A DNA stretch of 64,000 nucleotides. It comes from Thermoplasmatota archaeon (GTDB lineage: Archaea; Thermoplasmatota; Thermoplasmata; UBA10834). Shown here piece by piece: positions 1 through 39,061 of this stretch; the first letter of the stretch is position 1; every line of letters starts with the position of its first letter. The stretch spans positions 416,001 to 480,000 of the forward strand of contig JBFMHR010000001.1 in assembly GCA_040751795.1 (NCBI GenBank). Direction: 5' to 3'. Below the pieces are notes generated by a model. It worked only from the letters and a program-made list of their open reading frames with translations, searched no databases and had not been told where the DNA came from. A program made the translations under genes and the position numbers.

Positions 1-82
1 CGAGCTTGAGAAACTTGGATTCATACTGACTTTCATATGGGACCCGGAGCCTAGAACCGACGAACCGACTATGTCTCGATAA
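1..82 (+). CDS. Possible 3' end of an upstream gene (partial)
   Basis: Open frame from base 2 (ELEKLGFILTFIWDPEPRTDEPTMSR) ending TAA at 80-82; too short to confirm. Confidence 0.3.
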   Translation, partial: ELEKLGFILTFIWDPEPRTDEPTMSR

Positions 83-101
83 CCCTACATACACGGAGTT
101 C

Positions 102-107
102 TTTAAA
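102..107 (+). promoter_or_regulatory. Candidate archaeal TATA box
   Basis: TTTAAA about 25-30 nt before the first stem of the structured region. Confidence 0.35.
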
Positions 108-127
108 TCGGAGTCGATAACCACAGC

Positions 128-740
128 ACGAGAGGCATCGAGAGGGAAAAAGACGGATCAGGGAGGCATCCCGAGATCCTCGATTGTCGCTCGAAGACGA
201 TCCCTCTCGAGTCCGTCCCGGATGCGTCTCGCCGTCGAGACGGATCGGAGAGGCAAGAGACGCATCGCGTTGCGGGGCGACTAATCGGCCGTTCTCGAGT
301 GAAATCCTGGTTTGTGAATAAAAAATGAGTAAGGAGTTTAGCTCGGAGCTATAAACCTCTGATTCGAAATTAGCCAGATGTGTCGATATGCATCCGGCTC
401 CCTGTGTAGTCATAGCCCCGTGCCGACACGCAATCCCTCATTGACACACTAATATGAGCGCTGAATTGAACAGGAATACAGCGACAACAGTGGTTATAAT
501 GCACGATGTGGCGATGCAACGGACTACGCTGTTGGCGAGGATCATTGGCCGACAAAGTATATGTGCTAGATATACAATCCGTGGCTGCACTTCGGCTAAG
601 GTCGAGGTGAATCGTGGGGTCGAGGAACTGGCTGAGAACAATCGCCGGGTGAGGCTCCGCTGCAATCATGCGTACGTCTGCGGCGGCATCCGTCCCAGCT
701 AGATATCGCATCGACACCCCCCTGCTGAAGCTGGGGTGTG
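128..740 (+). ncRNA. Candidate large structured non-coding RNA or 5' leader of the RHS gene
   Basis: Stems read directly: 138-147/201-210 and 221-230/257-266 (perfect 10 bp), 181-190/277-287, 377-383/388-394, 485-492/527-534, 545-552/592-599, 557-562/570-575, 628-634/696-702, 657-664/679-686, 714-720/733-739. G-U pairs favour the + strand. No convincing ORF. Confidence 0.5.
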
Positions 741-3700
741 GGTACAGTGAAGGAGTCGACGGTTCGAGGTTCGGGGGCAGGCACGAGCGGAATGCCTGAG
801 ATCGATAGAGGGACAAGCGCAAGGACGCTTTCACGGAGGGTCCATACATTCGCATTAGCGTTCGCAATCATCGCGACCGTGTTGCTGATCTTTGTGGCAT
901 TTGCGCCAGCCGCGCAAGCATCTTGCGAGGATGCACTGAACAGTTACGCCTATGATCTCCCTTCGAACTCCGACCAGCTTGCCACCAGTGAGGAAGAAAG
1001 CACCTGGGCAGACGACGGTGAGACATCAAGTCCTGAGCCTCCGTCCATTGACGAACTGTCTGACCTCGGACACGGTTTCGAGACGCGTTCATTCTACTCT
1101 CAAATCGACCCCAATGTCGTGAATGTGCTTGGCAGTGAGGACTCAAGCGATGCGCCCCATTCCTCCTACCAGGAAACCGACACGCTTGGCAGCAACGACT
1201 CATACGGTTTCCCGAGCTTGGAGAATGAGACTTCTTCAGACTATTGGAACTCTAATGCCTTTGGCCGATATAGATTGAGTGCCGATGATTACTCGAAAAT
1301 GGTTCTTTACGACAGTGGTTCCATGCAAGTTGCATCCGCATGGTTCGACGTCGAATCAGACATCGGAGCGACACTTGGCACTGCCACCATTGTCTCGAGA
1401 ACGTCCTCCCACATACTGACAAGTCAGCCGTTAGTCCTCGGCGAAGACGACATCGGCGAGCTGCTGATACTCACTGAATTCCGATTCGCCGAGAAGCCGA
1501 AAGTCACTGCGGAACTATCGTCTGCGTGGATTGACGAATTGAGCGTGTCATGGAACATCCAGCTCATGTTCGATGCGATTCAAACACCCGATGACTTGTT
1601 CAATGTCACTGATCTGGTAGACGGACCATCGATGAGCATAGCAGGCCACTCTGTAGAAGTGGGGACGATGTCTGACGAAGGAAGATGGCAAAGTCGACTT
1701 GGATTAGACTGGTCGGATGCTGGCTGCGGAGATTTCAGCGTGCGCAATATGGGTCTTGATAACATAGCCAAGATTGTCTTTCCAAAGGGAATGGGCTTAG
1801 TGGACCCCACGATTGTCTGCACGTCGTACTATCAGAACTCCCTCCCTGGCGCCCCGTTCAGGAACACTGTCTACAGCGGCGGGTCCTATTGGCTATTCGT
1901 AGCGGGCCACAATTGGATTCAGTATCACCGAAGCGATGACCAGGGTGTCACATGGTCAGAACCCACTTACTTCGCAGAAATCTACTGTCCACAGCGCCCA
2001 GGTACTTTCGATGTCGCAGTACAGAACAATCAAGTGGCCGTGGCTTGGATGGACCTTTGGAACACGGAACAATATGAAGTGCGATACATCGATGGGTACA
2101 TCACTGGCTCTTCGATATCATGGAACACGGCAATCTATGTCGACTCAGTCATGTCCGGCCACTATGGATGGTTCGGCGGAGTCACTCTCGGCGTCGATGG
2201 TACAGCATATGTGTGCTATGCGGAGAAGAAGCTTGACGATTCAGGGGTTTATCTCTTGGGACTGACCACCATGAAGAAACCGTTTGATTCCAATTCATTC
2301 TCAGAGTTCGCCAATACCTTCCCAGAGTACCCAATCCTGCCTGGGAGCGTCCCATTTATACGGCCGATGTCCGTCACAACGGGAGCCGACAGCGTCGCTT
2401 TCACTGCCCTCGTAGGAGTCGACACTGTTGACCCGGAGCCAATCTCTTACGTGATCACTGTTGTCTCGCCGAACGGAGGAGAAGAGTGGATGCGGGAGAC
2501 ATACTATGATATTCTGTGGACCACAGAACCAGGTATCGGTTACGTCAAGATTGAGCTATATCAGAATGGGAATCCATTCTACGTAATTGACTATAGCGAT
2601 TACAATGACGGGCATTATGAATGGAGAGTTCCATCTACGCTTCCCACGGGACAGTACTACCTGAGGGTGTCCGATACTGGCGACCCAGACGTTTGGGATG
2701 AGAGTGATGATCCGTTCTCAATAGTCTTGGTTCCGTTGTGCGTGATATCACCGAACGGAGGAGAAGAGTGGGCGCGGGATACATACCATGATATTCTGTG
2801 GACCATAGCATCAGGTATAGGTTATGTCAAGATCGCGCTCTATCAGAATGGTAATCTTTTCTACTCAATTGACTCTAGCGATCCCAATGACGGATATTAT
2901 GAATGGAGAGTCCCAGCATTGTTCACCGTGGGACAGTACTACCTGAGGGTGTCCGATGCCAGCCACCCAGACGTATGGGATGAGAGTGACAACGCGTTCT
3001 CAATAGTGCTTTCAGCCACCACATTGCGCGTTACATCGCCAAATGGCGGAGAGGAATGGTGGCAAGGGAGTACACACCTAATCACATGGACTACATCTCT
3101 AACCTTGCCCGGCGTCATTGAGTTGTGGAATGTCGCAAGCAACCAGGGAACACAACTGGCTCCTGTTGAGTTGAGTCTTGGCCAATTCTCTTGGGTCATT
3201 TCGAGCAGCCAGGCAATTGGCGACAACTACAAGATCAGAATAAGATCGGCATTTGGCGGTTACGAAGACTGGAGCGACAGTGTCTTCCGCATTGTCCCAG
3301 TCCCACCAAGTTCGATTTCGGTCTTGTGTCCGAACGGGGGTGAAACTCTCTACTACGGGCGTTCATTCTACGTCAATTGGACCTCTGAGGGGACAGTCGC
3401 AACGGGACCTGTCAAGATCGCATTGTATTCTGAGGGGTGGCAGAGGCTACTGATTACTGACGAAACGGAGAACGACGGGTCGTACAGGTGTTCGTGGTCT
3501 CCAGACTGGTGGCTTGATCATGGCGCCAAATACCAAGTGAGAGTGTCGAGCCTGGTTGACACAGGCATCTATGACTATTCGGATGCCTTCTTCTCGATGT
3601 CGTTCTTCATTCCCAAGGAGGGCATAGACCACTCAAGCATACTAGTCAACGTGTACAGACCAAATGCAAACACATGGGCCCTCTCTGCTTGGGACATCAT

Positions 3701-6700
3701 AGACGTCGACTGTCTTGGGTCCGTCGATCTCCAATCCGTATGTCCTGGAGAGAAAGATGAGTTGCACATGATATACATCGATAGGACGGATCGACTCACG
3801 TACCAACGATACCAGCTAGATGATTGCCCTGAACCAGTAAGCCTTGATGTGAGCGACGGGAGTCTCCCTTCGATGTCGATTGATATGAACGGGGACATGC
3901 ATGTGCAATATGCTTCAGACGGGAAGGTGTGGGAAATGCACACGTCGCCCGGAGACGGTGTATGGAGTGACGTCGTGGAATTTGGAGAAGGTGACGTATA
4001 TGAAATCACGGGCCTCTCCAGCGGAGAGAAGCTGGAGTCGAAGAATTTCATATCCTTCATGGACCTATCCACATATCCTTACCAGTACGAAATATTCTTT
4101 GGAACTCTGCCGCTGCCGGCCGACGTCATTGGCCCGTACGGCGACCCGTGGAGTGCAGGCGGCATCAATCAGGACCAACCTTTCAACATGGGAGTGACGG
4201 ACATCATCTCCCCGGGCAATGGTCTGTTGTATCTCTTCCAGAACGATTTTGTGGTACCGGAACGCGGAACTGACATAGTGGTCTCCCACTTCTACAGCGC
4301 CCCGCAGTACTTTGTGGCAAACTCCGTCGGCGTCCTAGTCCCATATCTGCAGTATTCGTTCCCTTACTGCAAGATGGGCGATGGGTGGCAGTTGAACTTG
4401 CCGTGGATAGATGACACCTATGTCCATCTCTGGAGCGGCACGAGAGTGAAGATCGATTGGGATGGCGACCACTTCAACAACACTCGGGGACAGCCCTTCT
4501 TCCTGAAGAGACTGTCCGTTGGATACCAGCTGGACCTCCAGGATGGCATGCGCATACTATTCGACTCCGATGGTGCTCCTAGCTATGTCATATCCGACAG
4601 AGCGGTGAACCCTTCGCTTCATGACTACAAGTTAGAATACGCTGTAAATGGGGAGGAGAAGCGTCTGAGCTTGATAAGGGATACAGTGGATCGATATGTT
4701 GCGTTCCTGTACAATGTAGATGGAAGGCTCTCAGGAATAAGATACGACACCAGCACAGTATCGTTCACTTACTCAGGAGGCCTACTGACAGGCGTGACTG
4801 ACCCCATAGGAAGAGCCACGAGCTTCTCGTATTGTGACATCGCTGGTTTCCCTTCGATGTTGATAGACTCCGTGATTCTCCCTTCGTCGTCTGCAGGAAG
4901 TGGACGGATAGACTACCTCTATGTACCGATTGACGTCGGCAGCGACGCCCGCGCTTACGTGGTGAGTTGCCGGTATATCCCCAACGAGAACTACAGAATG
5001 TACTCCTATACAGTCGTGGATGGTGTCATCACTTGCACGACGGTCAACGACTACAGCATCCACGAGGCTACGGAAGTCGACTGGGTCGGCGCGACTGTGT
5101 ACAACTTCGATTCTGACGCCAAAGCTAGCACCACAACCTACTTCGGACATGACTCGTATGAGTACCCCTACGGCACAGATACCGTCCCGTTGAAGAGGAC
5201 GGTCTCGAGGTACTCCCCGGACGGACGGGCGGTGACCTCGGAGACCTACTACGACTTCATGTCTGAACCGGATGTGTTCACTTCGTACTCGGACAGCCGG
5301 GGAAACACGATATACTCCAAGGATGCGAGAGGCCACGAAACCTTCGCATCATACTCTAACACAACGACCAGGAACGCCTTCTACAGACCTCCTCAGCTTG
5401 AGAAGACGACAAGCGGGAAGATCATGTTCGACGATTTCAACGACTGGCATGATGATGGATGGTCGAAATCGTCAGGAGGATACTGTACGATAGGCAACTA
5501 CCTACTCAACGACACTTATGACCCAAGCTGCAAATTGCGGGCCACGAGTAGCGCCTTTGTATTGTCCAAGGATTTGACACCCGGGGAGTCCGGCCTCGCC
5601 AAACTCATCATCGACTGCATGCTTGAGATAGAGACCACAGATAGCGATATGGCAATAATGCTTACCAGCGAGTCTGGTACCCTCCTCACGGGGATACGGT
5701 TCTGCTACAGCACGTGGTGGAACGACTACTACATATTCTATCTAAGAAGTGACGGAATCTGGGACAAGACCGGAGTCAAGTACTCATCAGACACCCCTTT
5801 CAGGGTGACTCTCTCAGTCCAGATATCTTCAGGAAATGTCAGCACGGAATTCTACATTGACGGAGCATGGAAGTTCACGTGCCCGCAAAGGTATGTTGGC
5901 ACAAACGTCGTGAAGTATCTGAAGGTAAGCCAAGACTACAGAGGATCAGTACCTGAATGCGTGATTGACAACGTGAAGGTCTTCGCAAACTGGGACGTCA
6001 CTGTCACTGGTCTCTCAAGCGGCATGTTTGTGGAGATCTACGACAGCAGAGGGAACTTCGTCGAAAGGAAGAAGGCCGGCGGCCCCTCCGTTACATTCAC
6101 GTTTACTCCTTCAAAATCATTCATGCCACACGGTAACATCATAGTCAGGAACGACACGAGCGTCATAAACCTCGTTGACTCATACAGAGAGATATGGGGC
6201 GGTGACACTTACCGGTACAGCGATAGCTCTCTGATGAAATCCGCAGTATCCAGAACTTACAGCGGCATAGATTTCGCGACCACCACAATCTTGGATGAGT
6301 CGGTTGACTCGACTAAGTATGACCTGATTGGGGCCTTCAATTTCGTCTCCGACGCGAACCTGGTACTGAGCCAGAGCAACTACCACCACGACGAATTCTC
6401 AGCTGGTGTGGGCTATCACGGATACAAGCCTAAGGTTGGCGTGAATCCCACGAACTTCTACGTATCTAGCACGTCCTATATCGTCCAGTTCGTGTACCTA
6501 GAGGCAAGCGCGATGCCTATTGAAATCGGAATGCGATACTACTCCACGGCCAACGGATGGTCGAACATGGCGTTCTGGGGAACCGATGCCATCACTCTCG
6601 ATGACGGAAAGACCGAGTATCGAAGAGGGGACATGCCGACATCAGGTCAGTGGGTCATGTTGGTCACCAAGGCTTCTGACATCGGATGGAGCTCGTACTA

Positions 6701-9700
6701 CCTAAGTGGAATGAACTTCACGCACCTCGGAGGCGATCCGCGTTACGACAAGACCGCATTCACGTCCGACACGAGCTTCGGCAAGATCCGAGTCACGGGT
6801 CTGACGGCTGGACAGAGAGTTGACATCCGGCATCCGAACGGGACAATGATAACCTCAGGGATTGCGACGTCGACATACCTTGACCTGGACCTCTACGCAG
6901 CAGGCATACATGCGTTTCCGTTGAGCGGCTATTTCGTATTCTATGACACTGCTGGCCAGGTTGCCTATGAGAGCTCCGTCTTCAGGGGCATCTATCCGAA
7001 GGATTCCTATGCGTACAATCTTGCGAACAGCCCGTTCTACACGAACTCACACGTCCCGGAAGGATACACTGGGCTTGCCACGGGGACGATGCAGTATACG
7101 GATGCGGCTCGCACGACCTCCATGGAGACCTACATGAAATTTGGACGGCTCTCTGGATCGACGTGGGTGGAGAACTCTCTGGTAAGTGAGACGAAGACGA
7201 AGGACGGGACCGTCTGGCGCGCGACTCAGTATGAATACGACCAGTATGGAAACACTGTCAAGGTGACTGATCCGAGAGGGGTGGTGATGAACTACTGCTA
7301 CGAACGATCGGGTACGTTCCTTGATTCGAGCTGGATGATACTCGCAAGTACTCCAATTGGCCAGCAGAACCTCTCGGCAAGATTCGATTACTACAGCAAT
7401 GGCCTCCTAAGAAGCGAGACCGACGCCAAGGGCTATGTCACCAACTATGAGTATGACAGCGTCGGCAGAGTGACAAAGGTGACATACCCATCTCTCGACG
7501 GCGTTTTGGTGAGCATCGACTACATCTACGACAATGTCAACCAGATCGTGACTTACCGTGATGCCATTGACACGATGAGCAAGACTTACTACGATTCATT
7601 TGGCAGAGTCTGGAAGGAGCAAAGGTACACATCCGGCGGAACGTCGTATTCGTACCGCACCTACACGTACGGCTGGAACGGCAGGGTGTGCGAGATCACT
7701 GACGCTCTAGGGAGGGGCACGCACGTCGACTACGACTACTTTGGCAGAATAGTCAAGGCGTACAACTCAGACGAGACGGCTGTAAGAACATATTACGATG
7801 ACAGGAACAGGACGGTCTCACAGTTCGATGAACTAGGCCACAGGAAAGACATAGTGTATGACTCCATCGGACGGACGATCCGCTCGGTACAATATCTGGG
7901 AGAAGAGCAAATAGTCAATAGCATGACGTATGACGACATTGGGAACTTGCTCACCGTCACAGACAATGCAGGATTGATGACGGCCTATACATACGACAAT
8001 ATGGCCAGACTGAAATCCGTCACATATCCCTATGGCGTCAACGAGGTTTTGTACTATGATGCTGCGAGCAGGCTCGAGAGGATTGACCGGTCAGGGACGA
8101 CCTATGACTTGCTCTATCAGTACGATGATGCTGGAAGGCTCCTGAAGAAGTACTACACGAACGGCGATTGCTCGAATTACACCTACGACCCGAATGGCAA
8201 CATAGTGTATGCATCCTGCACAAGCTGCTTCACTACAACGGTGACGACAAGGAGCTACGACGAGTGGGACAGGCTCGAAGAGGAGGTCACCACCCTGGAC
8301 AAGTCGTCCTACTCTGTCAAGTTCACGTACGATACAAGGAGCAACTTGATGACAATCGACGCGATTGACAGCTCGTACGTCGTATCCTACACCTATGATG
8401 AATTCAACCGGATGAAGACCGCGAGCCTGAAGGCAGGCCGCACCACATTGTCACTGGCCAGCATGAACTACAACACCCGTGACCAGATGACATCGATTTC
8501 CTATGGAAACGGTGTGACGACATCCTTCACACTGGACCCGACTCGTGGGTGGATTGACAGGATACTCGTGTCCAAGTCGTCGACGTCTCTTCTTGATTTG
8601 AATTATCAACGAGATGCGACAGGCCGAACCACTCAAGTGAACGCCTATCGGACATATGTCTACGACGACCTAGGGCGCCTGACCTATGCGAACGACACCT
8701 CGGCATATGGTCACATCGCATATACATATGACTCATACGGCAACCGCAAGACCATGACAAGGGAATCGACCACTACGACTTACAGCTACGACGAGTACAT
8801 GCGCCTCAGGCAAGCAGTCACTGGAACCTCTGTCAAGACCTTCACATATGATAGCGTGAGGGGGAACCTTGCCACAAAGGCAGACACGTCTGCGAGTTAT
8901 GAGTTCCATTACGACGCCGACGACAGAATGTACCTGCTACTGCAGAATGGTGGAGTCGCAGGGTACTATACGTACGACGCCTTCGGACGCAGGGCGAAGG
9001 TCATTGAAGGAGATGTGACTGAGACCACCATCTACGCCGGGTCGGCACCCCTCGTCACGATAAGCGGAAGCGGCAATAAGATCACGAAGACCCTCCACGC
9101 ATACGCCAATGGAATCCATATAGCCAAGTATGTGTCAAAATACGTCTACTACTATCACCAGGATGAAGTAGGCAGTGTACGGCTTGTGACAGACAAGTTC
9201 GGTGCGGTCGTATTCGATACGGATTACCTGCCGTTCGGTGAGTTATTCATGCCGGATGGGCAGGAGGACTTCCTGTTCGTGGACGGCCGAGCCTCCAAGT
9301 ATGCGGGGCTGATAAGTCTAGGTGCCAGATACTACGACCCCGACGCAGGCAGGTTTACGACACCTGACAAGGTCGTCGGCGCCCTGCCTACTCCCATCAC
9401 CATGAACAGATGGGTATACTGTCACAATGACCCGATAAACAAGGTGGACGCGTCTGGGATGTGGCCGTGGGACAATATAGTGAACACCATAGTTGATGGA
9501 GCCATTGACTTACTCGACGCCGGGGCGAACCTCGTGGGTGATGCAATTGAGTTCGTTGCGGACGTCGTCGTGGAGACGGTGGAGACGGCCATTGAAGTGA
9601 TCGAGACAGCTGTCGATGTCGCCGTTGCATTGGTGGTCGAAGTCGTAGAGGCGGTCAAAACGGTCGCTGAGATCGTCGTCGCGGGCTGCGAGGCGATCAA

Positions 9701-10238
9701 GGTTGCCTGGGACAACCTTGACCCAGGGCTGAAGCAATGGATTGTCATGGGCTTGTCCATAGCGGCTTCAATCGCCCTTCCAGGGATAGGAGGCGTCCTT
9801 GTCAGCTGCCTGATTGACGGTACGTTCATCGACATGGTAACGGCAATAAGCACTGGGGATTGGGCCATGCTCGGCATGTGCGCATTGGCGTTCATACCGG
9901 GTGGGAAGGCGCTGAAGGGATTGAAGGGTCTTGGTGGGCTTGGAGACGTCGCGAAGGTTGGCAAGAAAGCGCCGAAGCGAGTCGCGGTCATTGGTGAGAC
10001 TCAGGCACGAGTCGACGCAGCTGCCGCGAAATATGGTGGTGAAACCATGCCGAAACTACCTCCGGGGAATAGAATGGCAGAAAACCGTGCCTGGATAAAC
10101 TCCAAGATGGATGAAGGATATATCATTGTGGACATTGGGCTGGACCCGAATAAGGCTCGACGTGGGTCTTACTATGCAATGGAATTGCATGAGATACTCG
10201 TATCGAGGAATTATCAACGATACTATCCGGTCCCCTAG
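738..10238 (+). CDS. Secreted RHS/YD-repeat polymorphic toxin, 3166 aa (alternative start ATG 792)
   Basis: N-terminal signal peptide (RRVHTFALAFAIIATVLLIFVAFAPAAQA), BNR motif SDDQGVTW, four SPNGGE Ig-like repeats, DUF6531-like ISPGNG, many YD repeats, RHS core LGARYYDPDAGRF...DPINKVDASG, followed by a C-terminal toxin region. Confidence 0.95.
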   Translation: MGTVKESTVRGSGAGTSGMPEIDRGTSARTLSRRVHTFALAFAIIATVLLIFVAFAPAAQASCEDALNSYAYDLPSNSDQLATSEEESTWADDGETSSPEPPSIDELSDLGHGFETRSFYSQIDPNVVNVLGSEDSSDAPHSSYQETDTLGSNDSYGFPSLENETSSDYWNSNAFGRYRLSADDYSKMVLYDSGSMQVASAWFDVESDIGATLGTATIVSRTSSHILTSQPLVLGEDDIGELLILTEFRFAEKPKVTAELSSAWIDELSVSWNIQLMFDAIQTPDDLFNVTDLVDGPSMSIAGHSVEVGTMSDEGRWQSRLGLDWSDAGCGDFSVRNMGLDNIAKIVFPKGMGLVDPTIVCTSYYQNSLPGAPFRNTVYSGGSYWLFVAGHNWIQYHRSDDQGVTWSEPTYFAEIYCPQRPGTFDVAVQNNQVAVAWMDLWNTEQYEVRYIDGYITGSSISWNTAIYVDSVMSGHYGWFGGVTLGVDGTAYVCYAEKKLDDSGVYLLGLTTMKKPFDSNSFSEFANTFPEYPILPGSVPFIRPMSVTTGADSVAFTALVGVDTVDPEPISYVITVVSPNGGEEWMRETYYDILWTTEPGIGYVKIELYQNGNPFYVIDYSDYNDGHYEWRVPSTLPTGQYYLRVSDTGDPDVWDESDDPFSIVLVPLCVISPNGGEEWARDTYHDILWTIASGIGYVKIALYQNGNLFYSIDSSDPNDGYYEWRVPALFTVGQYYLRVSDASHPDVWDESDNAFSIVLSATTLRVTSPNGGEEWWQGSTHLITWTTSLTLPGVIELWNVASNQGTQLAPVELSLGQFSWVISSSQAIGDNYKIRIRSAFGGYEDWSDSVFRIVPVPPSSISVLCPNGGETLYYGRSFYVNWTSEGTVATGPVKIALYSEGWQRLLITDETENDGSYRCSWSPDWWLDHGAKYQVRVSSLVDTGIYDYSDAFFSMSFFIPKEGIDHSSILVNVYRPNANTWALSAWDIIDVDCLGSVDLQSVCPGEKDELHMIYIDRTDRLTYQRYQLDDCPEPVSLDVSDGSLPSMSIDMNGDMHVQYASDGKVWEMHTSPGDGVWSDVVEFGEGDVYEITGLSSGEKLESKNFISFMDLSTYPYQYEIFFGTLPLPADVIGPYGDPWSAGGINQDQPFNMGVTDIISPGNGLLYLFQNDFVVPERGTDIVVSHFYSAPQYFVANSVGVLVPYLQYSFPYCKMGDGWQLNLPWIDDTYVHLWSGTRVKIDWDGDHFNNTRGQPFFLKRLSVGYQLDLQDGMRILFDSDGAPSYVISDRAVNPSLHDYKLEYAVNGEEKRLSLIRDTVDRYVAFLYNVDGRLSGIRYDTSTVSFTYSGGLLTGVTDPIGRATSFSYCDIAGFPSMLIDSVILPSSSAGSGRIDYLYVPIDVGSDARAYVVSCRYIPNENYRMYSYTVVDGVITCTTVNDYSIHEATEVDWVGATVYNFDSDAKASTTTYFGHDSYEYPYGTDTVPLKRTVSRYSPDGRAVTSETYYDFMSEPDVFTSYSDSRGNTIYSKDARGHETFASYSNTTTRNAFYRPPQLEKTTSGKIMFDDFNDWHDDGWSKSSGGYCTIGNYLLNDTYDPSCKLRATSSAFVLSKDLTPGESGLAKLIIDCMLEIETTDSDMAIMLTSESGTLLTGIRFCYSTWWNDYYIFYLRSDGIWDKTGVKYSSDTPFRVTLSVQISSGNVSTEFYIDGAWKFTCPQRYVGTNVVKYLKVSQDYRGSVPECVIDNVKVFANWDVTVTGLSSGMFVEIYDSRGNFVERKKAGGPSVTFTFTPSKSFMPHGNIIVRNDTSVINLVDSYREIWGGDTYRYSDSSLMKSAVSRTYSGIDFATTTILDESVDSTKYDLIGAFNFVSDANLVLSQSNYHHDEFSAGVGYHGYKPKVGVNPTNFYVSSTSYIVQFVYLEASAMPIEIGMRYYSTANGWSNMAFWGTDAITLDDGKTEYRRGDMPTSGQWVMLVTKASDIGWSSYYLSGMNFTHLGGDPRYDKTAFTSDTSFGKIRVTGLTAGQRVDIRHPNGTMITSGIATSTYLDLDLYAAGIHAFPLSGYFVFYDTAGQVAYESSVFRGIYPKDSYAYNLANSPFYTNSHVPEGYTGLATGTMQYTDAARTTSMETYMKFGRLSGSTWVENSLVSETKTKDGTVWRATQYEYDQYGNTVKVTDPRGVVMNYCYERSGTFLDSSWMILASTPIGQQNLSARFDYYSNGLLRSETDAKGYVTNYEYDSVGRVTKVTYPSLDGVLVSIDYIYDNVNQIVTYRDAIDTMSKTYYDSFGRVWKEQRYTSGGTSYSYRTYTYGWNGRVCEITDALGRGTHVDYDYFGRIVKAYNSDETAVRTYYDDRNRTVSQFDELGHRKDIVYDSIGRTIRSVQYLGEEQIVNSMTYDDIGNLLTVTDNAGLMTAYTYDNMARLKSVTYPYGVNEVLYYDAASRLERIDRSGTTYDLLYQYDDAGRLLKKYYTNGDCSNYTYDPNGNIVYASCTSCFTTTVTTRSYDEWDRLEEEVTTLDKSSYSVKFTYDTRSNLMTIDAIDSSYVVSYTYDEFNRMKTASLKAGRTTLSLASMNYNTRDQMTSISYGNGVTTSFTLDPTRGWIDRILVSKSSTSLLDLNYQRDATGRTTQVNAYRTYVYDDLGRLTYANDTSAYGHIAYTYDSYGNRKTMTRESTTTTYSYDEYMRLRQAVTGTSVKTFTYDSVRGNLATKADTSASYEFHYDADDRMYLLLQNGGVAGYYTYDAFGRRAKVIEGDVTETTIYAGSAPLVTISGSGNKITKTLHAYANGIHIAKYVSKYVYYYHQDEVGSVRLVTDKFGAVVFDTDYLPFGELFMPDGQEDFLFVDGRASKYAGLISLGARYYDPDAGRFTTPDKVVGALPTPITMNRWVYCHNDPINKVDASGMWPWDNIVNTIVDGAIDLLDAGANLVGDAIEFVADVVVETVETAIEVIETAVDVAVALVVEVVEAVKTVAEIVVAGCEAIKVAWDNLDPGLKQWIVMGLSIAASIALPGIGGVLVSCLIDGTFIDMVTAISTGDWAMLGMCALAFIPGGKALKGLKGLGGLGDVAKVGKKAPKRVAVIGETQARVDAAAAKYGGETMPKLPPGNRMAENRAWINSKMDEGYIIVDIGLDPNKARRGSYYAMELHEILVSRNYQRYYPVP
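2452..3010 (+). repeat. Intragenic tandem duplication, 282-bp period (two 94-aa Ig-like SPNGGE domains)
   Basis: ccgaacggaggagaagagtgg at 2469 and 2751; long shared blocks such as gggacagtactacctgagggtgtccgat; two more diverged copies start near 3030 and 3321. Confidence 0.9.
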
Positions 10239-10265
10239 CCCAAGTTCCCTGGAGGTCTTTGGCAA

Positions 10266-10829
10266 ATGCCCATTAAACTCAGACAGGAAGGCAGGCTCTG
10301 GATGGCTGAGGTCACCCCACCCCATGGCTGTTGGCAATCGCCCAGACCGATGATGGTTGGCGACTTGACTGAAGCATTGGCAGCTATTGGATGCCGACGA
10401 GAAGACATTGACCTTGCGCTACGAGAGACATACATGATTAAGCGAGAACAGGACGAGGATGATCGGATTCTGCCAAAACTGCGGCAGGCTCTCGATGGAA
10501 CATACGCGGTGCCCCCCCAGGAGCCAGGCGAAGAGGGCATCATAGCTTACATCCTGTTCGAACGAGAGTCTCCGCTGACTCTCTGGGAGATTTCCGACGC
10601 TTACGACTACTTGAACCGTGTGGGCTTAACCGCAGATGTTCTGGCTTGGGCGTTCGTGCGATTGAATGCGAGAGGATGGCTTGCTGAGCACGGCACTCTT
10701 TTCGGACTCACGACGGATGGTCGAAAGACCGTCACGCAGATTGTGGGCGAAGGTCGTATAGAGGACAAAATAGGCCGTCTGGTGGAATGGACCCAAGCCA
10801 ACCACCTCGCCATAGATACGAGGGCATGA
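10266..10829 (+). CDS. Probable immunity protein for the RHS C-terminal toxin
   Basis: Small ORF 27 nt after the toxin stop, GGAGGT RBS at 10251, same low-GC composition; N-terminal AEVTPPHG...IGC segment and a winged-helix-like C-terminal half. Confidence 0.7.
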   Translation: MPIKLRQEGRLWMAEVTPPHGCWQSPRPMMVGDLTEALAAIGCRREDIDLALRETYMIKREQDEDDRILPKLRQALDGTYAVPPQEPGEEGIIAYILFERESPLTLWEISDAYDYLNRVGLTADVLAWAFVRLNARGWLAEHGTLFGLTTDGRKTVTQIVGEGRIEDKIGRLVEWTQANHLAIDTRA

Positions 10830-11322
10830 CTCAATCCACCGTGAGAAGGAGCCATGGGGACGGAGAGAAGAGACAAGGAGCTGACTGAGGTGGAGTCACC
10901 TCCTCCTTCCCTTCATCCTAATTGAAACACCCACTCAGACTATCCCCACTGCCAAAGAACTCCACTTCGAGTAACCGAGCTCTCGCCCTTGATCACCAGC
11001 GAATTCTGACTCGATTTCAGGGTCCTTGCGCATTTTAATTCCGGGAAGACAATTTATGCTCAAGGGGGAACACACTCTCCCTCGGAGAAGAGGCTGTATG
11101 GGCGGACCAAGAACGAGCCGGCATCCCCACGAGAAGAGAGCGATGAAGAAGCTCATATCCTGGCACAACAGACTTCTGATTGAGATTCTGCCAGTCAATG
11201 CACTCCAGAGTCCGCTCCCTGCACACTGCATAGATGCGCTCACTCGGAAGAGTAGCTTTTTAGCCGTCGAAGAGGATAGAGAGCCCGGAGAAAGACGCGC
11301 ACGCGTGCTCCCGGTGGTTCAG

Positions 11323-11526
11323 TTGGACGAACGATCATCTAGATTCGCCTTCAAGCTGGTGCCCTTCGTGGCCCTCCTCGTCGCAGGGGTCATACTGCTG
11401 GTGTTCGCCTCGACGACCATCTGGGCGGAAGGAGAGACCGTATTCTACCTTCCCCTAGGTATCCCGGGAATCGTGGCGGTCCTGGCAGGAGCCATAGGCA
11501 TATCCCTGGTCGCGCTCGCGAGATGA
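11323..11526 (+). CDS. Small two-TM membrane protein
   Basis: Hydrophobic 3' part of ORF 11026-11526; TTG start after GGTGG. Confidence 0.6.
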   Translation: MDERSSRFAFKLVPFVALLVAGVILLVFASTTIWAEGETVFYLPLGIPGIVAVLAGAIGISLVALAR

Positions 11527-11619
11527 GCATCTCCCAAAGAGACCTCCGTGCCGGAGGGCCTCCTTCCGCCGCAGAAAATCTATCTGTCAAGAACCGCATC
11601 GTCAGGCGGGTGCAGCCCG

Positions 11620-11880
11620 ATGACACATGCGGACAAGAAGGTAGTACCGAGGAAGAGGCTGATGCGCTTCACGGAGTTCTTCATCGTCGGCCTGATGATG
11701 GGCATCTCGGAGGACCTGATGGCGATATACTTCGCCACGGGGGAGACGATCACCATCCAAATCGTCGTCATAGCGTCCGCCGTATCGCTGCCGTTCGCGT
11801 TCTTCAGCGAGATGGTCGTGGACCACCCCGACTTCTGGCCCCACGTCCTGGGGAAGCTGAGGGCAAGGGCGGACCACTGA
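11620..11880 (+). CDS. Small membrane protein
   Basis: EFFIVGLMMGISEDLMAI...PFAFFSEMVVDH; two hydrophobic helices, host-like codon usage. Confidence 0.7.
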   Translation: MTHADKKVVPRKRLMRFTEFFIVGLMMGISEDLMAIYFATGETITIQIVVIASAVSLPFAFFSEMVVDHPDFWPHVLGKLRARADH

Positions 11881-12007
11881 CCGCCTGGGAGCGGAGAATA
11901 CCCCAAGGCGGGCGGGGCTTGCGCATCCCATATGATGCATGCTAGCCGGGCTGTGTGAGAAGTCTTTAACCCGTCGGGTGCGATTCGGTGATGGAGGAAC
12001 TGGAGGT

Positions 12008-12337
12008 TTGGATTTGCGAACCAAGGCGGACCGCACACGAGACGCGAATGTCTTTCTCCTCGTGGGTCTGCTAGTCATGGGACTAGGGGCCATGCCCCTC
12101 ATCAACGGCCTCTACGGATACTGTGTCATCGTGCCAGCGATCGAAGAATCGGGCGACGCCGTCAGTGATGCTGCGGCAGAGATGGGGATAGACGAGGTCC
12201 CGGCCCTCTCGGCCGACAGGCCTGCCCTGCTCTTCGCGGTCATGATCCTGACAGGCATCTGCATGGTCGCCAGCGGGGCGGCGCTGCTGTCCGTCGGACT
12301 GCTGAGGAGAAGGAGATGCGCTGAGGAAAGGCCTTAG
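12008..12337 (+). CDS. Two-TM membrane protein
   Basis: GGAGGT RBS then TTG; two hydrophobic segments and a basic tail. Confidence 0.6.
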   Translation: MDLRTKADRTRDANVFLLVGLLVMGLGAMPLINGLYGYCVIVPAIEESGDAVSDAAAEMGIDEVPALSADRPALLFAVMILTGICMVASGAALLSVGLLRRRRCAEERP

Positions 12338-12376
12338 AGCCAGAAGGACGATAGGGGTCCTCCGAGGTTCGGCTCC

Positions 12377-12583
12377 ATGGCAGGGATGAAAGGGATCGTC
12401 ATAATGGTCCTCATCTTCTTCTCGGTGATCGCACTCATGCAGTCCCTGCTGACGCTGCTGTCGAGCATCTACCCAGTCGGTGCACGCGAATCGGCCAACA
12501 GCGTCGCCCTGTTCGCCATGGGCGCAGGCTTCCTCGCCACCAGCATATTCGTGTGGAAGAAGTGGGAGGAGGACGGGGCCTAG
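12377..12583 (+). CDS. Small two-TM membrane protein
   Basis: 68-aa hydrophobic ORF with GAGGT RBS. Confidence 0.6.
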   Translation: MAGMKGIVIMVLIFFSVIALMQSLLTLLSSIYPVGARESANSVALFAMGAGFLATSIFVWKKWEEDGA

Positions 12584-12606
12584 GCCATGGACCGAGGAGC
12601 CGGGAC

Positions 12607-13854
12607 CTACCATCTCCGCTGACGGTGTCTCTCGCCCTGCCGGGGGTGGGCCGGCCGCCTCTGGCCCCTCGGCTGCTTCGGCGCAGGCCTCGCTGCGGCG
12701 CCCACCGCGTCCCGCGCCGCGTCGGAGTGGAACTTGTGGGGCATCACCTCGATCCTCATCCTTATGAGCGCCTCGATCTCCCTCAGCGCGTCCCGCTCGT
12801 GGGCCGCGCACAGGGAGTAGGCGGTGCCCTCCGCCCCCGCCCTCGCCGTCCGGCCGATCCTGTGGACGTAGTTGTCGACCTGGTCCACGGGCAGGTCGTA
12901 GTTTATCACATGGGATATGTCGTCGACGTCGATGCCCCTCGCGGCGATGTCCGTCGCGACAAGCACCCTCGCGTGCCCCGACTTGAAGTCCTCCAGCGCC
13001 CTCGTCCTCTGCCCCTGGGACTTGTTCCCGTGTATGGCGTCGGCCCGGATGCGGTGGTAGGACAGCATGTCGGCGACCTTGTTGGCCCTCCTCTTCGTCC
13101 TCGTGAACACCAGCACGCACCTCAGGTCCTGCCGCCTCAGAAACTCCAGCAGGACCGCGTCCTTGTTCCTGTCGTCCACGAAGAGGACCTTCTGCTGCAC
13201 AAGCTTCACCGTGGTCGCCTGCGGGGCGACCTCCACCCGCACGGGGTGGCGGAGCAGCGTCTTGGCGAGCTCGCTTATCTTCGGAGGCATCGTCGCCGAG
13301 AAGAACACCGAGTGCCTGTGCGCCGGCAGCCTCGCGATGACCTTCTTGACGTCGTTTATGAAGCCCATGTCGAGCATCCTGTCGACCTCGTCCAGGACCA
13401 GGAACTCCAGGTCGTTCAGCTTCACGTGGCCCTGGTTCATCAGGTCCAGCAACCTGCCGGGCGTGGCGACGAGGACTTCGACGCCTCCGGAGAGCGCCCT
13501 GACCTGGGGGCCCTGGCCGACGCCGCCGAATATCACGGTGTGCCTGAACCTCATGAACGAGCCGTAGGTGGCGAAGCTCTCGTCTATCTGCGCGGCGAGC
13601 TCCCTCGTCGGCGCGAGGACCAGGGTCCTCGGGGACTTGGGGGATATGCGCTTGGGCGCCTGCGACATCAGCTGCAGCAGGGGCAGGACGAACGCGGCGG
13701 TCTTCCCCGTGCCCGTCTGCGCGATCCCGACCACGTCCTTGCCCTGCAGGATATGGGGGATGGCCTGCTCCTGTATCGGTGTCGGTGCCGTATAGCCCTG
13801 CTTCGCGACCGCCTCTAGCAGAGGCGGTATGAGCTTGAGATCCTTGAACTCCAT
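12607..13854 (-). CDS. DEAD-box ATP-dependent RNA helicase (RhlE-like)
   Basis: Q motif PTPIQ, AQTGTGKT, PTRELA, TPGR, DEVD, SAT, ARGID, HRIGRTAR. Confidence 0.97.
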   Translation of the reverse strand: MEFKDLKLIPPLLEAVAKQGYTAPTPIQEQAIPHILQGKDVVGIAQTGTGKTAAFVLPLLQLMSQAPKRISPKSPRTLVLAPTRELAAQIDESFATYGSFMRFRHTVIFGGVGQGPQVRALSGGVEVLVATPGRLLDLMNQGHVKLNDLEFLVLDEVDRMLDMGFINDVKKVIARLPAHRHSVFFSATMPPKISELAKTLLRHPVRVEVAPQATTVKLVQQKVLFVDDRNKDAVLLEFLRRQDLRCVLVFTRTKRRANKVADMLSYHRIRADAIHGNKSQGQRTRALEDFKSGHARVLVATDIAARGIDVDDISHVINYDLPVDQVDNYVHRIGRTARAGAEGTAYSLCAAHERDALREIEALIRMRIEVMPHKFHSDAARDAVGAAARPAPKQPRGQRRPAHPRQGERHRQRRW

Positions 13855-15145: not shown

Positions 15146-16303
15146 TCAGGCGTGGTACGCGTCGATGAAGTCCGCCCAGCCGGTGTCGGCCCCGAACGCC
15201 ATCAGCCTGTACGCGCCCTCGTCGTAGTACCAGTCGTTGTACGTCGCCCAGTAGAAGGAGACGCCCCTGCAGTCCGCCATCTTGGGCCCTCCCCAGCACT
15301 TGACGACGTAGGAGAGGAGCGAGGACTGCATGTCCGCCGTGGCGGTCCTGAGCTGCGTGTCCGTCACGCCCTTCGTGGCCAGCAGGTGGTACCCGAGGTC
15401 GTAGAGGTCCAGGAAGGCGGGCACGGCGGTCATGTAGTGCGTCGCCTTCACCGCCGCCGCGTAGTATGCCTCGTACGTCGGCAGCAGGTACGTCATCCTT
15501 GCGGACCAGGCCGTGAACGTCCCTATGGTCGCCTTCAGCTGGGGGATGTCGATCGAGGCCATGGTCATCTTGCCGCCGTTGGTGTTGGTGTAGTGGGCTG
15601 CGTACGCGTCCACCATCACGATCGAGAGGTCCCTCGGCAGCATCGTCGGATTGTTCACGAGGGGGGTGAGCACCGTCGTCAGCGGGATGCCGTCCCCCGC
15701 CTCGTACTCCTCCGACGCGACCATGTACTGGACCAGGTCCGTCTTCGAGACCTGGTACCCGACCTCGATCATGTTCATGTTGCAGGCGTCCATGGCCAGG
15801 ACGTCTATCGTGTCACCCGCGTTGGCTATGGCGCTCTGGAGCTCGGGCATGTCTATCGAGCTGGCCGAGGTGTCGTCCGAGCAGATGTAGTGCCACCCGA
15901 AGCCGTGGTCCCACAGCATCAGGGCGAAGTACGTCGACGGCCACAGCGTCGTCGCCCGGTCGATCCACCAGGTCAGGGCCGCGGCGCTGCCCGAGTCCAT
16001 CTCCGGGTGCGTCTCCACAACGGTCACGGTGCTCCCCGAGACCTTGACTATCTCGATCGTCGAGGTCGTCTTCAGGTCCTTGAAGGCGACCAGGTTGACC
16101 TGGTCGCTCGGCGGCACGGCCTGGAGGAACGGCAGCGTCGTCGAAGCCCAGTAGTTCTCCAGGGAGTTGTCCCCCGCGACATAGATCGCGTAGGTCCAAG
16201 ATGCGGTCGTCTCGGCACTTCCGGCCGGCGCCATCAGCAGAATGCCAGGCACCAGCAGGATGGCCGCCATCGCCATGCTCAAAACATACTTTCTCATGTC
16301 CAT
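15146..16303 (-). CDS. Secreted clostripain-family cysteine peptidase (C11)
   Basis: Signal peptide, WTYAIYVAGDNSL, WDHGFGW (His), MDACNM (Cys), ASEE. Confidence 0.92.
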   Translation of the reverse strand: MDMRKYVLSMAMAAILLVPGILLMAPAGSAETTASWTYAIYVAGDNSLENYWASTTLPFLQAVPPSDQVNLVAFKDLKTTSTIEIVKVSGSTVTVVETHPEMDSGSAAALTWWIDRATTLWPSTYFALMLWDHGFGWHYICSDDTSASSIDMPELQSAIANAGDTIDVLAMDACNMNMIEVGYQVSKTDLVQYMVASEEYEAGDGIPLTTVLTPLVNNPTMLPRDLSIVMVDAYAAHYTNTNGGKMTMASIDIPQLKATIGTFTAWSARMTYLLPTYEAYYAAAVKATHYMTAVPAFLDLYDLGYHLLATKGVTDTQLRTATADMQSSLLSYVVKCWGGPKMADCRGVSFYWATYNDWYYDEGAYRLMAFGADTGWADFIDAYHA

Positions 16304-23374: not shown

Positions 23375-24892
23375 ATGGCCGCAGCAAAGGGACGGAGGAA
23401 GGGCCTCACCACAGCCTTCGGGAGGCCCGTGGGAGACGACCAGAACAGCGAGACCGCGGGCCCCAGGGGCCCGGTGCTCGTGCAGGACACGCACCTGCTC
23501 GAGAAGCTGGGGCACTTCGACCGCGAGCGCATACCCGAGCGCGTCGTGCACGCGAAGGGCGCGGGCGCGCACGGGTACTTCGAGGTCACGGCGGACGTGA
23601 CGAGGTACACGAAGGCGAAGTTCCTCTCGAAGGTCGGCAAGAGGACCGACGTGTTCGTGAGGTTCTCCACCGTCGGCGGTGAGAGGGGCTCCGCGGACGC
23701 GGAACGGGACCCGAGGGGTTTCGCCGTCAAGTTCTACACCGAGGAGGGCAACTACGACCTCGTCGGGAACAACACCCCCGTGTTCTTCATCAGGGACCCG
23801 CTCAAGTTCCCCGACTTCATACACACTCAGAAGCGCAACCCGAGGACCAACCTCAAGGACCCCGACATGTTCTGGGACTTCCTGTCCCTGACGCCCGAGT
23901 CGGTCCACCAGGTCACCATCCTCTTCTCCGACAGGGGCACCCCCGCGACCTTCAGGAACATGAACGGCTACAGCAGCCACACCTACCTGTGGTACAACGG
24001 GAAGGGGGAGCGGTTCTGGGTGCAGTACCACCTCAAGACGGACCAGGGGATCAGGAACCTCACGAGGCAGGAGGCGGACGCCATGAGGTCGAAGGACCCC
24101 GACCACGCGACGAGGGACCTGCACGACGCCATCGAGCGGGGGGATCATCCATCGTGGACCCTCGAGATGCAGATAATGCCGGCCGACGAGGCCGAGGACT
24201 ACAGGTGGGACGTGCTCGACATCACCAAGGTGTGGCCCCACGGCGACTACCCGACCATGAAGGTCGGGAAGCTGGTCCTGAACAGGAACCCGGTGAACTA
24301 CTTCGCCGAGGTGGAGCAGGCCGCGTTCGCGCCCAGCAACCTCGTCCCCGGGATAGCGCCGTCGCCCGACAAGCTGCTGCAGGGGAGGCTCTTCTCGTAC
24401 CACGACACGCACCTGCACAGGCTGGGCCCGAACTACCACCTCATCCCCGTGAACGCGCCGAAGAACGCGCCGGAGGCGAGCTACCAGAGGGACGGCCCGA
24501 TGAGGGTCGACTCCGGGGGAGGTCCGGGCCCGAACTACTGGCCCAACAGCATGGGCGGACCCGGGCCTGACGCGGCCGCCATGGACCCTGCCTCCGACCT
24601 GTCGGGGAAAGCGGCCAGGCAGCCCTACTCCCACCCCAACGACGACTTCGTCCAGCCTGGGGCGCTGTACAGGAAGGTCATGACGGAGACCGACAGGGAG
24701 CACCTGGTGGGGAACATCGTCGCCCACCTGGGCGGCGCGCAGAAGCGCATCCAGCTGAGGCAGGCGGCCCTGTTCTTCAAGGTGGACCCGGACTACGGCC
24801 GCAGGGTGGCAAAGGGGCTAGGCCTCAGCGTCAAGGAGGTCGAGGGGCTCGCGAAGATGTCGCAGGAGGACCGCGTCAAGGCGACGAGCTGA
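23375..24892 (+). CDS. katA: Monofunctional heme catalase (small subunit)
   Basis: [38 protein letters not shown]. Confidence 0.97.
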
Positions 24893-27500: not shown

Positions 27501-27581
27501 GCAAAGTCTCGGATTCGCGTGTCAGTACCGGGGCGATGGACGTCTTTGTCCATCGCGCGGGCACGGAATTGGGGGAAGAGA

Positions 27582-39019: not shown

Positions 39020-39061
39020 GCGGGGACACCCTCGCAGTCCCTGACCACCGGAGGTAAGGAC

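Follow-up and report, generated by a model that had tools for sequence, protein, structure and literature searches.

We analyzed a 64,000-nucleotide stretch of DNA (hereafter the window) from a Thermoplasmatota archaeon, which contains a giant RHS gene and, directly behind it, a small gene whose product would protect against the toxin that the RHS protein appears to carry. The window corresponds to positions 416001-480000 of contig C1 (488,721 bases) of the source genome (G000), an assembly of 2.05 Mb in 53 contigs with 92.8% completeness and 1.15% contamination. The RHS protein of 3166 amino acids (aa) is referred to as P0001 and the 187-aa product of the downstream gene as P0002. The positions of all features are collected in Table 1.

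P0001 is encoded by a single open reading frame (ORF) with a GTG start, in which an in-frame ATG at position 792 corresponds to M19. A Kyte-Doolittle scan over the whole protein revealed two hydrophobic regions only, residues 33-63 and residues 2951-3040. The first of them belongs to the leader, whose hydropathy maximum is 2.87 and which has comparable counterparts in relatives; cleavage would take place at AQA61/S62, a site placed by eye from the translation. Further on, a segment-wise Pfam scan located Kre9_KNH stretches at residues 577-650 and 865-951, and these immunoglobulin-like (Ig-like) repeats are presumed from their sequence to form an adhesion or stalk part. A BNR/Asp-box was weakly matched at residues 398-407. 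The YD/RHS shell was recognized by RHS_repeat (PF05593) in six stretches (E-value 1.5e-34) as well as by YD_repeat_2x (TIGR01643) and RHS_core (NF041261), and it probably starts near residue 1125. Six sequence matches in the PDB were obtained at E ≤ 0.01, with solved shells aligning over residues 2138-2909 (best E 3e-18). The best of these were two bacterial teneurin-like proteins, 9pt5_A (E 3e-18) and 9ifo_A (E 1e-17), over residues ~2315-2909; the others were Rhs shells of type VI secretion systems (T6SSs; 8h8a, 8h8b and 7q97) plus Tse5 (8cp6).

The Rhs-associated core, which should act as plug and aspartyl protease, was matched by TIGR03696 over model positions 1-76 of 76 (50 bits vs a cut-off of 32.5) and terminates in ...CHNDPINKVDASGMW. 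Rhs toxins are reported to be freed by aspartyl autoproteolysis after the second of two DPxGL-type motifs, which contains the catalytic Asp (PMC8636562). In P0001 the two core motifs read PDKVVG and VDASGM, the second being part of NDPINKVDASG at the core end (...RYYDPDAGRFTTPDKVVGALPTPITMNRWVYCHNDPINKVDASGMW), in which Pro and Leu are replaced. D2877, D2904, G2907 and W2909 were invariant in all four full-length members of the subfamily, and D2904 (9447-9449) is a candidate for the catalytic Asp. More distant relatives from the same archaeal family have kept DPELG...DPTGL at equal spacing.

An earlier note on this DNA, made from the letters alone, had described the large ORF with its tightly linked small gene, a Sec-type leader, surface or adhesion domains, a YD cage and an RHS core ending in DPINKVDASG. 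All of these were recovered here: the two genes by ORF list and translation, the leader by eye as hydrophobic residues 38-57 between a basic n-region and the putative cleavage site, and the remaining domains by the profile and structure matches given above. The same note had proposed a C-terminal toxin region. Its segment 9975-10238 is essentially the 93-aa domain described below, but the 258-aa region beyond the core is not a single domain: it divides into a hydrophobic module of 155 aa and an alpha/beta domain of 93 aa.

Table 1. Positions of the RHS gene, the downstream gene, their parts and the island features (window coordinates unless a locus is named)
Feature	Position	Strand	Extent	Basis
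RHS polymorphic toxin gene (P0001; probable function)	738..10238	+	3166 aa	Pfam RHS_repeat and Kre9_KNH; NCBIfam Rhs_assc_core; solved shells
Leader, with putative cleavage at AQA61/S62	738..920	+	hydrophobic core residues 38-57	basic n-region (..SRRVHTF); translation and hydropathy
Ig-like (Kre9_KNH-type) repeats	2454..3590	+	residues ~573-951	PF10342, E 3.1e-13
YD/RHS repeat shell detectable by sequence	7149..9224	+	residues ~2138-2829	
Rhs-associated core (plug/aspartyl-protease region)	9225..9461	+	residues 2830-2908	TIGR03696
Conserved hydrophobic pre-toxin module	9462..9926	+	residues 2909-3063	conservation in 4/4 full-length relatives; hydropathy
Rossmann-like putative toxin domain	9957..10238	+	residues 3074-3166; 93 aa and stop codon	
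Probable immunity gene (P0002)	10266..10829	+	187 aa	27 bases past toxin stop codon
N-terminal module of the immunity protein	10266..10433	+	~56 aa	hhalign; module alignment A8
Distal part of low-GC integrative island	1..11225		island ~36.6 kb	GC profile, tRNA and integrase
Island end	11211..11225	+	15 bases	copy (one gap) of the tRNA-Leu(CAG) 3' end
Feature of contig C53	L006:739-3693	-		
Features of contig C53	L006:4547-6859 and 6261-10862	+		

The hydrophobic module begins with acidic amphipathic helices, which are followed by transmembrane-like segments (LKQWIVMGLS...GDWAML...AFIPGG), and no Pfam family matched it in the segment-wise scan. P0001 was 62, 43 and 42% identical to P0021, P0032 and P0034, respectively, from the leader through ..AFIPGGKALKGLK (residue ~3063), beyond which the four tails are unrelated. 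The switch point of the tails thus lies ~155 residues past the cleavage motif, and the hydrophobic module belongs to the conserved scaffold. Two further frames, of 2980 and 3012 aa, from a different family of the phylum (G258 and G282) contain the module as well. In three metagenome loci that are 43-45% identical over the full length, L023, L024 and L025, we found one, three and one orphan toxin ORFs of 167-226 aa, respectively. Every one of these ORFs begins within the module and has its own small gene behind it. An orphan cassette of G429 restarts within the Rhs core, and the source window contains none. Because orphan cassettes begin inside the module, the search with the C-terminal region returned many matches of ~170 aa starting at query positions ~96-109. 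According to these sequence patterns, the module serves as the recombination handle for cassette exchange; in our reading it is a pre-toxin domain, as Zhang et al. (2012; PMC3482391) use that term, for which there is no name yet.

Tails and downstream genes of the relatives were then compared pairwise. The main tails of G429 and L024 share 31% identity over 150 aa (E 7e-8) and the genes behind them (G429_imm and L024_imm1) 44% (E 2e-76), while the orphan tails L023_orph and L024_orph1 share 41% over 184 aa and their downstream genes (L023_imm2 and L024_imm2) 36% (E 3e-31). Tail and downstream gene therefore co-vary in both of the cases for which the two parts were at hand; a third pair of tails, G429_orph and L024_orph2, was 42% identical. 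Most tails of the relatives have no Pfam family. For an orphan cassette at L024:16790-17293, TreTu_C matched at E 1.9e-4 and TNT at E 4.6e-3, both sub-threshold; its sequence suggests an NAD-using toxin. Two other orphan tails, L020:547-1440 (- strand) and L024:15610-16128, are 42% identical and have in common an ..AHH..P.. stretch, with no Pfam match at E ≤ 0.01. We take this stretch to recall the AHH-type HNH nuclease toxins.

The 93-aa domain that forms the tail of P0001 proved to be widespread. An exhaustive HMMER search of 1.84 billion representatives with the 258-aa C-terminal region returned 212 proteins at E ≤ 0.001, of which 41 reached E ≤ 1e-10 and 15 reached E ≤ 1e-30. Among the 150 matches listed of these 212, the domain is present in 109, and in 93 of the 109 it ends no more than 15 residues from the C-terminus. 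Carriers of at least 396 aa numbered 14 among the matches listed: RHS repeats are present in seven, and the other seven have no Pfam family. Three of the seven RHS-repeat carriers also contain TcdB_toxin_midN/FG-GAP, and two of those three SpvB in addition. One carrier is a Rheinheimera protein named in its source as an SpvB/TcaC N-terminal domain protein; the domain is therefore common to bacteria and archaea.

Within an alignment of 46 sequences, G13, G61 and E76 of the domain are invariant (adding 3073 gives the residue number in P0001), and conservation reaches at least 90% at I12, E14, R18, V19, A23, N43, W46, I57, D59, Y73 and Y86. The conserved residues of the toxin domain in P0001 numbering include G3086, E3087, R3091, N3116, W3119, D3132, G3134, Y3146, E3149 and Y3159. 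The AlphaFold2 model (25-sequence alignment; pLDDT 92.5, pTM 0.82) is a beta-alpha-beta-alpha-beta-alpha-beta sandwich, in which E14 (E3087) is placed after strand 1, D59-x-G-x-D (D3132) after strand 3, and Y73/E76 in the third helix. The domain has a net charge of +5 and P0002 a complementary one of -8. Pfam matched none of the 25 members and returned nothing usable for the C-terminal region at E ≤ 10; no sequence relative of the toxin region was found in the PDB by phmmer or profile searches, and tblastn against plasmids gave nothing usable. No related locus was detected in genome contigs with the smaller toxin alignment (A4).

By structure, the upper rows of the VIA-align comparison (Z 5.3-6.2) include TIR, SEFIR, nucleoside deoxyribosyltransferase (NDT) and an ADP-ribosyl-cyclase T6SS toxin, and the Toprim-bearing topoisomerases score nearly the same as the TIR-like proteins (Z 4.8-5.0). 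An Atlas cluster is partly annotated as ADP-ribosyl cyclase at a score of 0.87. Like the TIR, NDT and ADP-ribosyl-cyclase domains (9ro8 and 9hq0), the predicted toxin domain is a four-stranded Rossmann-like beta-alpha sandwich; its invariant Glu lies in the third helix, and the sole stretch aligned by hhalign pairs SxxYxME with SxW..RE of TIR. Unlike them, it has just 93 aa, and membership in these families lacks support. A Toprim-like domain would have a Glu after strand 1 and DxD after strand 3; E3087 and D3132-x-G-x-D follow these strands in the model, but the hhalign probability against Toprim_4 is 0.06% and the structural Z no higher than 4.8-5.0. Because of the modeled positions of E14, D59-x-G-x-D and Y73/E76 and the net charge of +5, our best guess is that the toxin is a cytoplasmic enzyme directed at nucleotides or nucleic acids; an N-glycosidase/NADase-like or a metal-dependent phosphoryl-transfer activity via E3087, D3132 and E3149 is a weakly supported suggestion as to its chemistry.

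The search with P0002 yielded 17 proteins at E ≤ 0.001 among 244 candidates, that is, P0013 and 16 metagenome homologs. All of the 16 except P0019, a fragment of 111 aa, were aligned (alignment A3, 15 sequences), and identity to P0002 is 65-81% for 14 of these and 47% for one. P0013 is the source genome's own call of the same gene, 131 aa with its start at M57, and is the sole form present in the Atlas. The first 56 residues of P0002 are kept in 13 of the 15 aligned homologs (the exceptions, P0016 and P0017, start where M29 lies), and because of this conservation the 187-aa form is taken as the real gene. The genome's call is accordingly 56 residues too short, and the part lost is, from its sequence, most likely the one that binds the toxin. 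A profile search with A3 found nothing in the PDB. The C-terminal half of P0002 matched a transcriptional-regulator-like domain at E 0.082, below the cut-off.

A second locus connects the toxin domain with the N-terminal module of P0002. In a sample of 401 genomes of the phylum, the toxin domain was found in two, G000 and G074. In G074, which belongs to another archaeal family, a 279-aa protein with a signal-type leader ends in the domain (41% identity, E 4e-13), and the next gene is made up of two ~57-aa modules that match the N-terminus of P0002 (hhalign probability 81%, E 1.2e-5); the gene upstream of the toxin homolog matches the module as well (hhalign probability 79%). The modules follow the pattern I.I...G.Y.A.V.PP...W.SP....L...L..RGC...D.W.AL.E.D. 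With the module profile (A8), E-values below 1e-6 were obtained in three genomes only: G000 (one copy), G074 (seven) and G113 (one). The evidence that the N-terminal module of P0002 is the toxin-binding part, all of it from sequence comparison, is moderate. With regard to the organization of the G074 locus (L072, G074:C7:1582-4809), the seven tandem ~57-aa copies (G074:C7:1231-2416 and 3384-3788) flank the small secreted toxin gene, two in the gene after it and five before, which looks like an array of immunity paralogs.

The findings on tails and downstream genes bear on whether the hydrophobic module is itself the weapon. It contains the sole transmembrane-like segments outside the leader, and membrane-damaging hydrophobic C-terminal domains are documented for Rhs proteins and teneurin-like proteins (TLPs) (PMC13018210, PMC10684867); the module of P0001 might then be a membrane-damaging or pore-forming toxin, as in Tse5 or the C-terminal domain of BiTLP, with the 93-aa domain as an accessory or targeting part. 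We regard this as unlikely. The module is retained in proteins that differ from one another in both tail and downstream gene, whereas a toxin retained in this way would call for an equally conserved immunity gene, which was not seen among the relatives. Immunity genes co-vary with the tails, and the 93-aa domain occurs without the module on bacterial RHS or Tc-type proteins and on the 279-aa secreted protein of G074. A P0001 that is not toxic at all, namely a surface adhesin or teneurin-like recognition protein with an inactive tail and an unrelated downstream gene (for example, a small winged-helix regulator), would agree with the degenerate DPxGL motifs and with the weak regulator-like match in P0002. 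However, the putative catalytic residues of the tail are conserved across the 46 sequences, the polymorphism of tails, the orphan cassettes and their co-variation with downstream genes are hallmarks of active conflict systems, and the P0002 module recurs beside a toxin homolog, which makes such an adhesin quite improbable.

With residues 1-2200 of P0001 as query, 7 of 60 relatives were matched at E ≤ 0.001 (8 of 61 with G000 included): 5 of 36 other genomes of the same family, none of the 11 of the same genus and 2 of 21 from other families of the class. One of the latter, G096, matched the Ig-like part only (residues 549-668). The open frames of the same family have 2574-2965 aa and 27-38% identity, one of them in a genome that is a single contig of 1.98 Mb (G418). 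G418, G427 and G429 each show a signal-type leader and DPELG...DPTGL-type motifs, followed by a small gene (209, 164 and 287 aa, respectively). At L025, an archaeal-type Ribosomal_S3Ae gene lies 5 kb downstream of the RHS locus. In all of the relatives' loci compared, the GC content of the RHS region is below that of at least one flank.

The RHS pair is the last cargo of an integrative island. The island begins 25.3 kb before the window at a tRNA-Leu(CAG) gene (G000:C1:390582-390667), which is followed by a tyrosine integrase gene (Phage_integrase, E 2.2e-8). The GC content is 0.45-0.58 over C1:392-428 kb, apart from one 1-kb bin at 0.635, and ~0.65 outside; in the window it amounts to 0.50-0.56 over positions 1-11000 and to 0.63-0.72 from 12000 on. 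Between C1:390582 and 416000 the cargo includes Dcm methylase, GHKL ATPase, Z1, DUF4420, AIPR, a UDG-family gene, GmrSD, NERD, an SLFN-type helicase and Shedu SduA_C, and judged by these genes the island is a defence island. At the GC step, the terminal 12 bases of the tRNA (GCTCCCTGCACA) are repeated exactly at window positions 11214-11225, and the agreement is 15 of 16 with one gap if counted from 11211. Because ~2.5 such 12-mers would be expected by chance in the two search boxes according to our estimate, the weight of this repeat lies in its position.

Contigs of relatives from other metagenomes (at least 85% likeness) break at the same place: one covers 10154-11222 and then stops, and two start at 11214 and 11220. 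A further one, a 5.8-kb contig from a soil metagenome (run X2), joins 10067-10465 to 11184-11226 in a different arrangement. No metagenome contig bridged the junction with at least 31 letters on both sides. A clean empty attB was not found either; the two flanks are present in all 11 same-genus genomes but never adjacent on one contig. In the contig of run X2, the toxin end and the first third of the immunity gene are joined to att-like sequence amid reordered genes of the right flank, and this joined piece is possibly what a decaying copy of the cassette has left behind. A small hydrophobic ORF (11306-11526, within the listed ORF 11026..11526) starts directly behind the border of the island and is covered by relatives' contigs that begin at the border; it probably encodes a membrane protein of the core genome.

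The host was placed by several markers. Contig C51 contains a full-length archaeal small-subunit rRNA (1505 bits, model positions 1-1478), for which Rfam prefers the archaeal over the bacterial model, and C23 contains one gene of the TFIIB type, a family detected only in the four archaeal control genomes. Both flanks of the island (6 kb on the right and 1.67 kb on the left) match all 11 same-genus genomes at 65-97% DNA identity. The archaeal origin assumed by the earlier note is thus confirmed at domain level by rRNA, TFB gene and genus-matching flanks, whereas the chimeric low-GC segment that the note feared turned out to be an island with tRNA-Leu and integrase at one end and a repeat of the tRNA terminus at the other. 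It should be noted that GC content does fall here from ~0.65 to ~0.52 and that the same assembly includes a likely contaminant contig with a secretin and an RHS gene, as one would expect if the assembly were chimeric, with bacterial DNA fused to the archaeal contig. On the other hand, DNA typical of the genus surrounds the segment on its 488,721-base contig, its borders are a tRNA-Leu with integrase and a repeat of the tRNA end, contigs of other metagenomes break at the same junction, and homologous giant RHS genes exist in genomes of the same family, including the single-contig one, and beside an archaeal ribosomal protein gene. An artifact of this kind is extremely unlikely.

The contig just mentioned, C53 (12.4 kb), carries a bacterial type II/III secretin (E 1.9e-28) beside DUF6531/RHS genes with a second Rhs core, and is probably a bacterial contaminant in the archaeal bin. 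The GC-rich core DNA of the window contains clostripain-family (Peptidase_C11) genes at 15146-16303 (- strand) and 27519-28994 (+ strand), an M32 carboxypeptidase (29069-30628), a catalase (23375-24892), C45/AAT-type acyltransferases, oligopeptide-type permeases and two homologs of the MttB methyltransferase superfamily at 37508-40501 that stayed under the equivalog cut-off. From their sequences, these core genes suggest a peptide-degrading lifestyle.

Export and delivery genes were searched for in the 92.8%-complete genome, with controls that were detected in reference genomes. PAAR_motif, Phage_sheath_1 and Phage_base_V had no match in this genome and none in P0001, in agreement with the earlier note, which had described the pair as lacking T6SS, PAAR and VgrG. 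TatC gave no match in the genome either, its control being detected in 11 of 14 reference genomes. A haloarchaeon with Tat export, a candidate host considered on account of 65% GC and the RR leader, was rejected: there is one TFB gene, no TatC and a genome of 2.05 Mb. The route of export nevertheless deserves consideration in its own right, since the RR pair of SRRVHTF stands directly before the hydrophobic core of the leader, and RR or KRR occurs in the n-regions of relatives; the cage could then leave the cell folded, through Tat. We consider this very unlikely in view of the lack of a TatC match in the 92.8%-complete genome, the lack of RR in the predicted P0021 and the residues after RR, which do not show the usual hydrophobic pattern (judged by eye).

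On the basis of these results, it is probable that the locus encodes a polymorphic RHS toxin with a Sec-type leader and the immunity protein cognate to it, and that an archaeon carries the pair at the far end of a defence or conflict island integrated at tRNA-Leu; the function assigned is deduced from sequence and predicted structure. The pairing of toxin and immunity gene, already proposed in the earlier note, has gained ground in that the same scaffold carries differing tails and downstream genes, a shared tail goes with a shared downstream gene in two of two cases, and the module of P0002 stands beside a toxin homolog in G074. In the mechanism that we propose, the leader would carry P0001 through Sec, and the beta-rich N-terminal and Ig-like domains would hold or present it at the cell surface. 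The YD shell would enclose the 258-aa C-terminal region, and the aspartyl protease of the Rhs core would cut after VDASG (D2904). Upon contact with a target, the module at residues 2909-3063 would insert into the target's single membrane and bring the basic 93-aa enzyme to the cytoplasm, where it would attack a nucleotide or nucleic-acid substrate. The acidic 187-aa protein would shield the producer, its N-terminal 56-aa module binding the toxin.

Several observations weigh against this interpretation. The canonical Pro and Leu of DPxGL are missing in the P0001 subfamily, and because the canonical prolines are missing, autoproteolysis could be impaired. The RR pair in the leader does not speak for Sec. 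As to the toxin domain, a Foldseek search of the PDB with its model gave no match at E ≤ 0.001, the best VIA-align Z of 6.2 falls within the range of common arrangements for this tool, and when the 46-sequence profile was compared by hhalign with alignments built from genomes of the host phylum, the probability was 0.12% for TIR_2 (17 sequences) and 0.06% for archaeal DnaG-type Toprim_4 (15 sequences). As to immunity, the strong module match in G113 is a stand-alone 74-aa gene beside a small secreted protein without the toxin domain, and the full-length immunity profile (A3) was found in none of the 400 other genomes of the phylum and in no JGI metagenome contig scanned. Because the full-length profile matched nowhere else, the link between toxin and P0002 rests on one second locus (hhalign 79-81%). 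Finally, the public runs hold at most 8% of the sampled words of window positions 9000-13000, and no RNA run is listed.

The hydrophobic module may, we infer, be the part that enters the membrane. A more far-reaching possibility, which we put forward tentatively and hold to be doubtful as a whole, is that the module is a self-contained membrane-entry device for a Sec-secreted cage and that the 93-aa tail and the 56-aa module represent a new enzyme-inhibitor pair common to archaeal and bacterial (Tc-type and RHS) toxins. If true, this would mean that diverse enzymes could pass without a dedicated machine across the single membrane of neighboring archaea. It would also answer the question of delivery for machine-less YD-shell toxins in archaea and perhaps for bacterial TLPs, a question that the TLP study itself states to be unresolved (PMC13018210). 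An archaeal system that is compact and has a conserved hydrophobic module ahead of its toxin offers a sensible setting in which to address it.

Antagonism between archaea has been little studied, and the clearest experimental case in the literature consulted is a contractile injection system of haloarchaea (PMC11566945). Taken together with the relatives found in 5 of the 36 other family genomes, the P0001 locus suggests that giant RHS weapons with Sec-type leaders and exchangeable warheads are maintained in a lineage of uncultured archaea. The locus offers a candidate for membrane entry, what may be a new small toxin fold and a new putative immunity module. In a full-text search of the literature, no work concerning the P0001 family turned up, either under Rhs proteins of Thermoplasmatota or under archaeal YD-repeat toxins that have a signal peptide.

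Among known systems, the T6SS Rhs effectors (7q97, Rhs1 of P. laumondii; 8h8a, RhsP of V. parahaemolyticus; 8cp6, Tse5 of P. aeruginosa) have a homologous YD shell and plug (E 1e-8 to 3e-17). In contrast to them, P0001 shows no PAAR, prePAAR or VgrG, and the 92.8%-complete genome yielded neither a sheath nor a spike gene; its motifs are DKVVG and DASGM instead of DPLGL, and its hydrophobic helices come after the cage, not before it. P0001 is not a T6SS Rhs effector. It is closer to WapA/WapI of Bacillus subtilis and other Rhs toxins that Gram-positive bacteria export through Sec, which likewise combine a Sec-type leader, RHS repeats, an Rhs core, a C-terminal toxin and a downstream immunity gene without a T6SS. 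WapA, which Koskiniemi et al. reportedly described in 2013, is said to be anchored in the wall, and its toxins are said to be tRNases. Unlike WapA, P0001 has no wall-binding repeats, belongs to an archaeal envelope, reaches ~3166 aa with Ig-like domains and carries toxin and immunity parts of unnamed families. By analogy with such systems, contact-dependent antagonism between relatives is the expected use.

Also among the closest systems are the bacterial TLPs, which are described as having a signal peptide, variable N-terminal adhesion domains, a YD shell around a small polymorphic C-terminal toxin and an immunity gene immediately downstream, with no dedicated delivery machine (PMC13018210). 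By definition, a TLP has an FN-plug, an NHL propeller and a YD shell adjacent in this order (PMC13018210; Raoelijaona et al., Nat Commun 2026), whereas only the shell was seen by sequence in P0001: its C-terminal half aligns (residues 2315-2909), no NHL family came up in the Pfam scans, and an FN-plug was not detected by sequence. P0001 further differs in its archaeal host, the TLP survey being one of bacterial genomes only, with no occurrence of the word 'archaea' in its text (PMC13018210), and in the conserved 155-aa hydrophobic module between the cleavage site and the variable toxin. Archaeal RHS polymorphic toxins had already been noted by comparative genomics, with Methanosarcina acetivorans as an example; according to that work, few archaea have such systems, and these were probably gained from bacteria (Zhang et al., 2012; PMC3482391). 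Compared with the systems that this source presents, the present one belongs to a different archaeal lineage, with frames of 2574-3166 aa and pre-toxin, toxin and immunity modules that are not in Pfam. Thus, the type of system is already known, and the three parts that appear not to have been described before are the hydrophobic module at residues 2909-3063, the toxin domain of 93 aa and the N-terminal 56-aa module of P0002.

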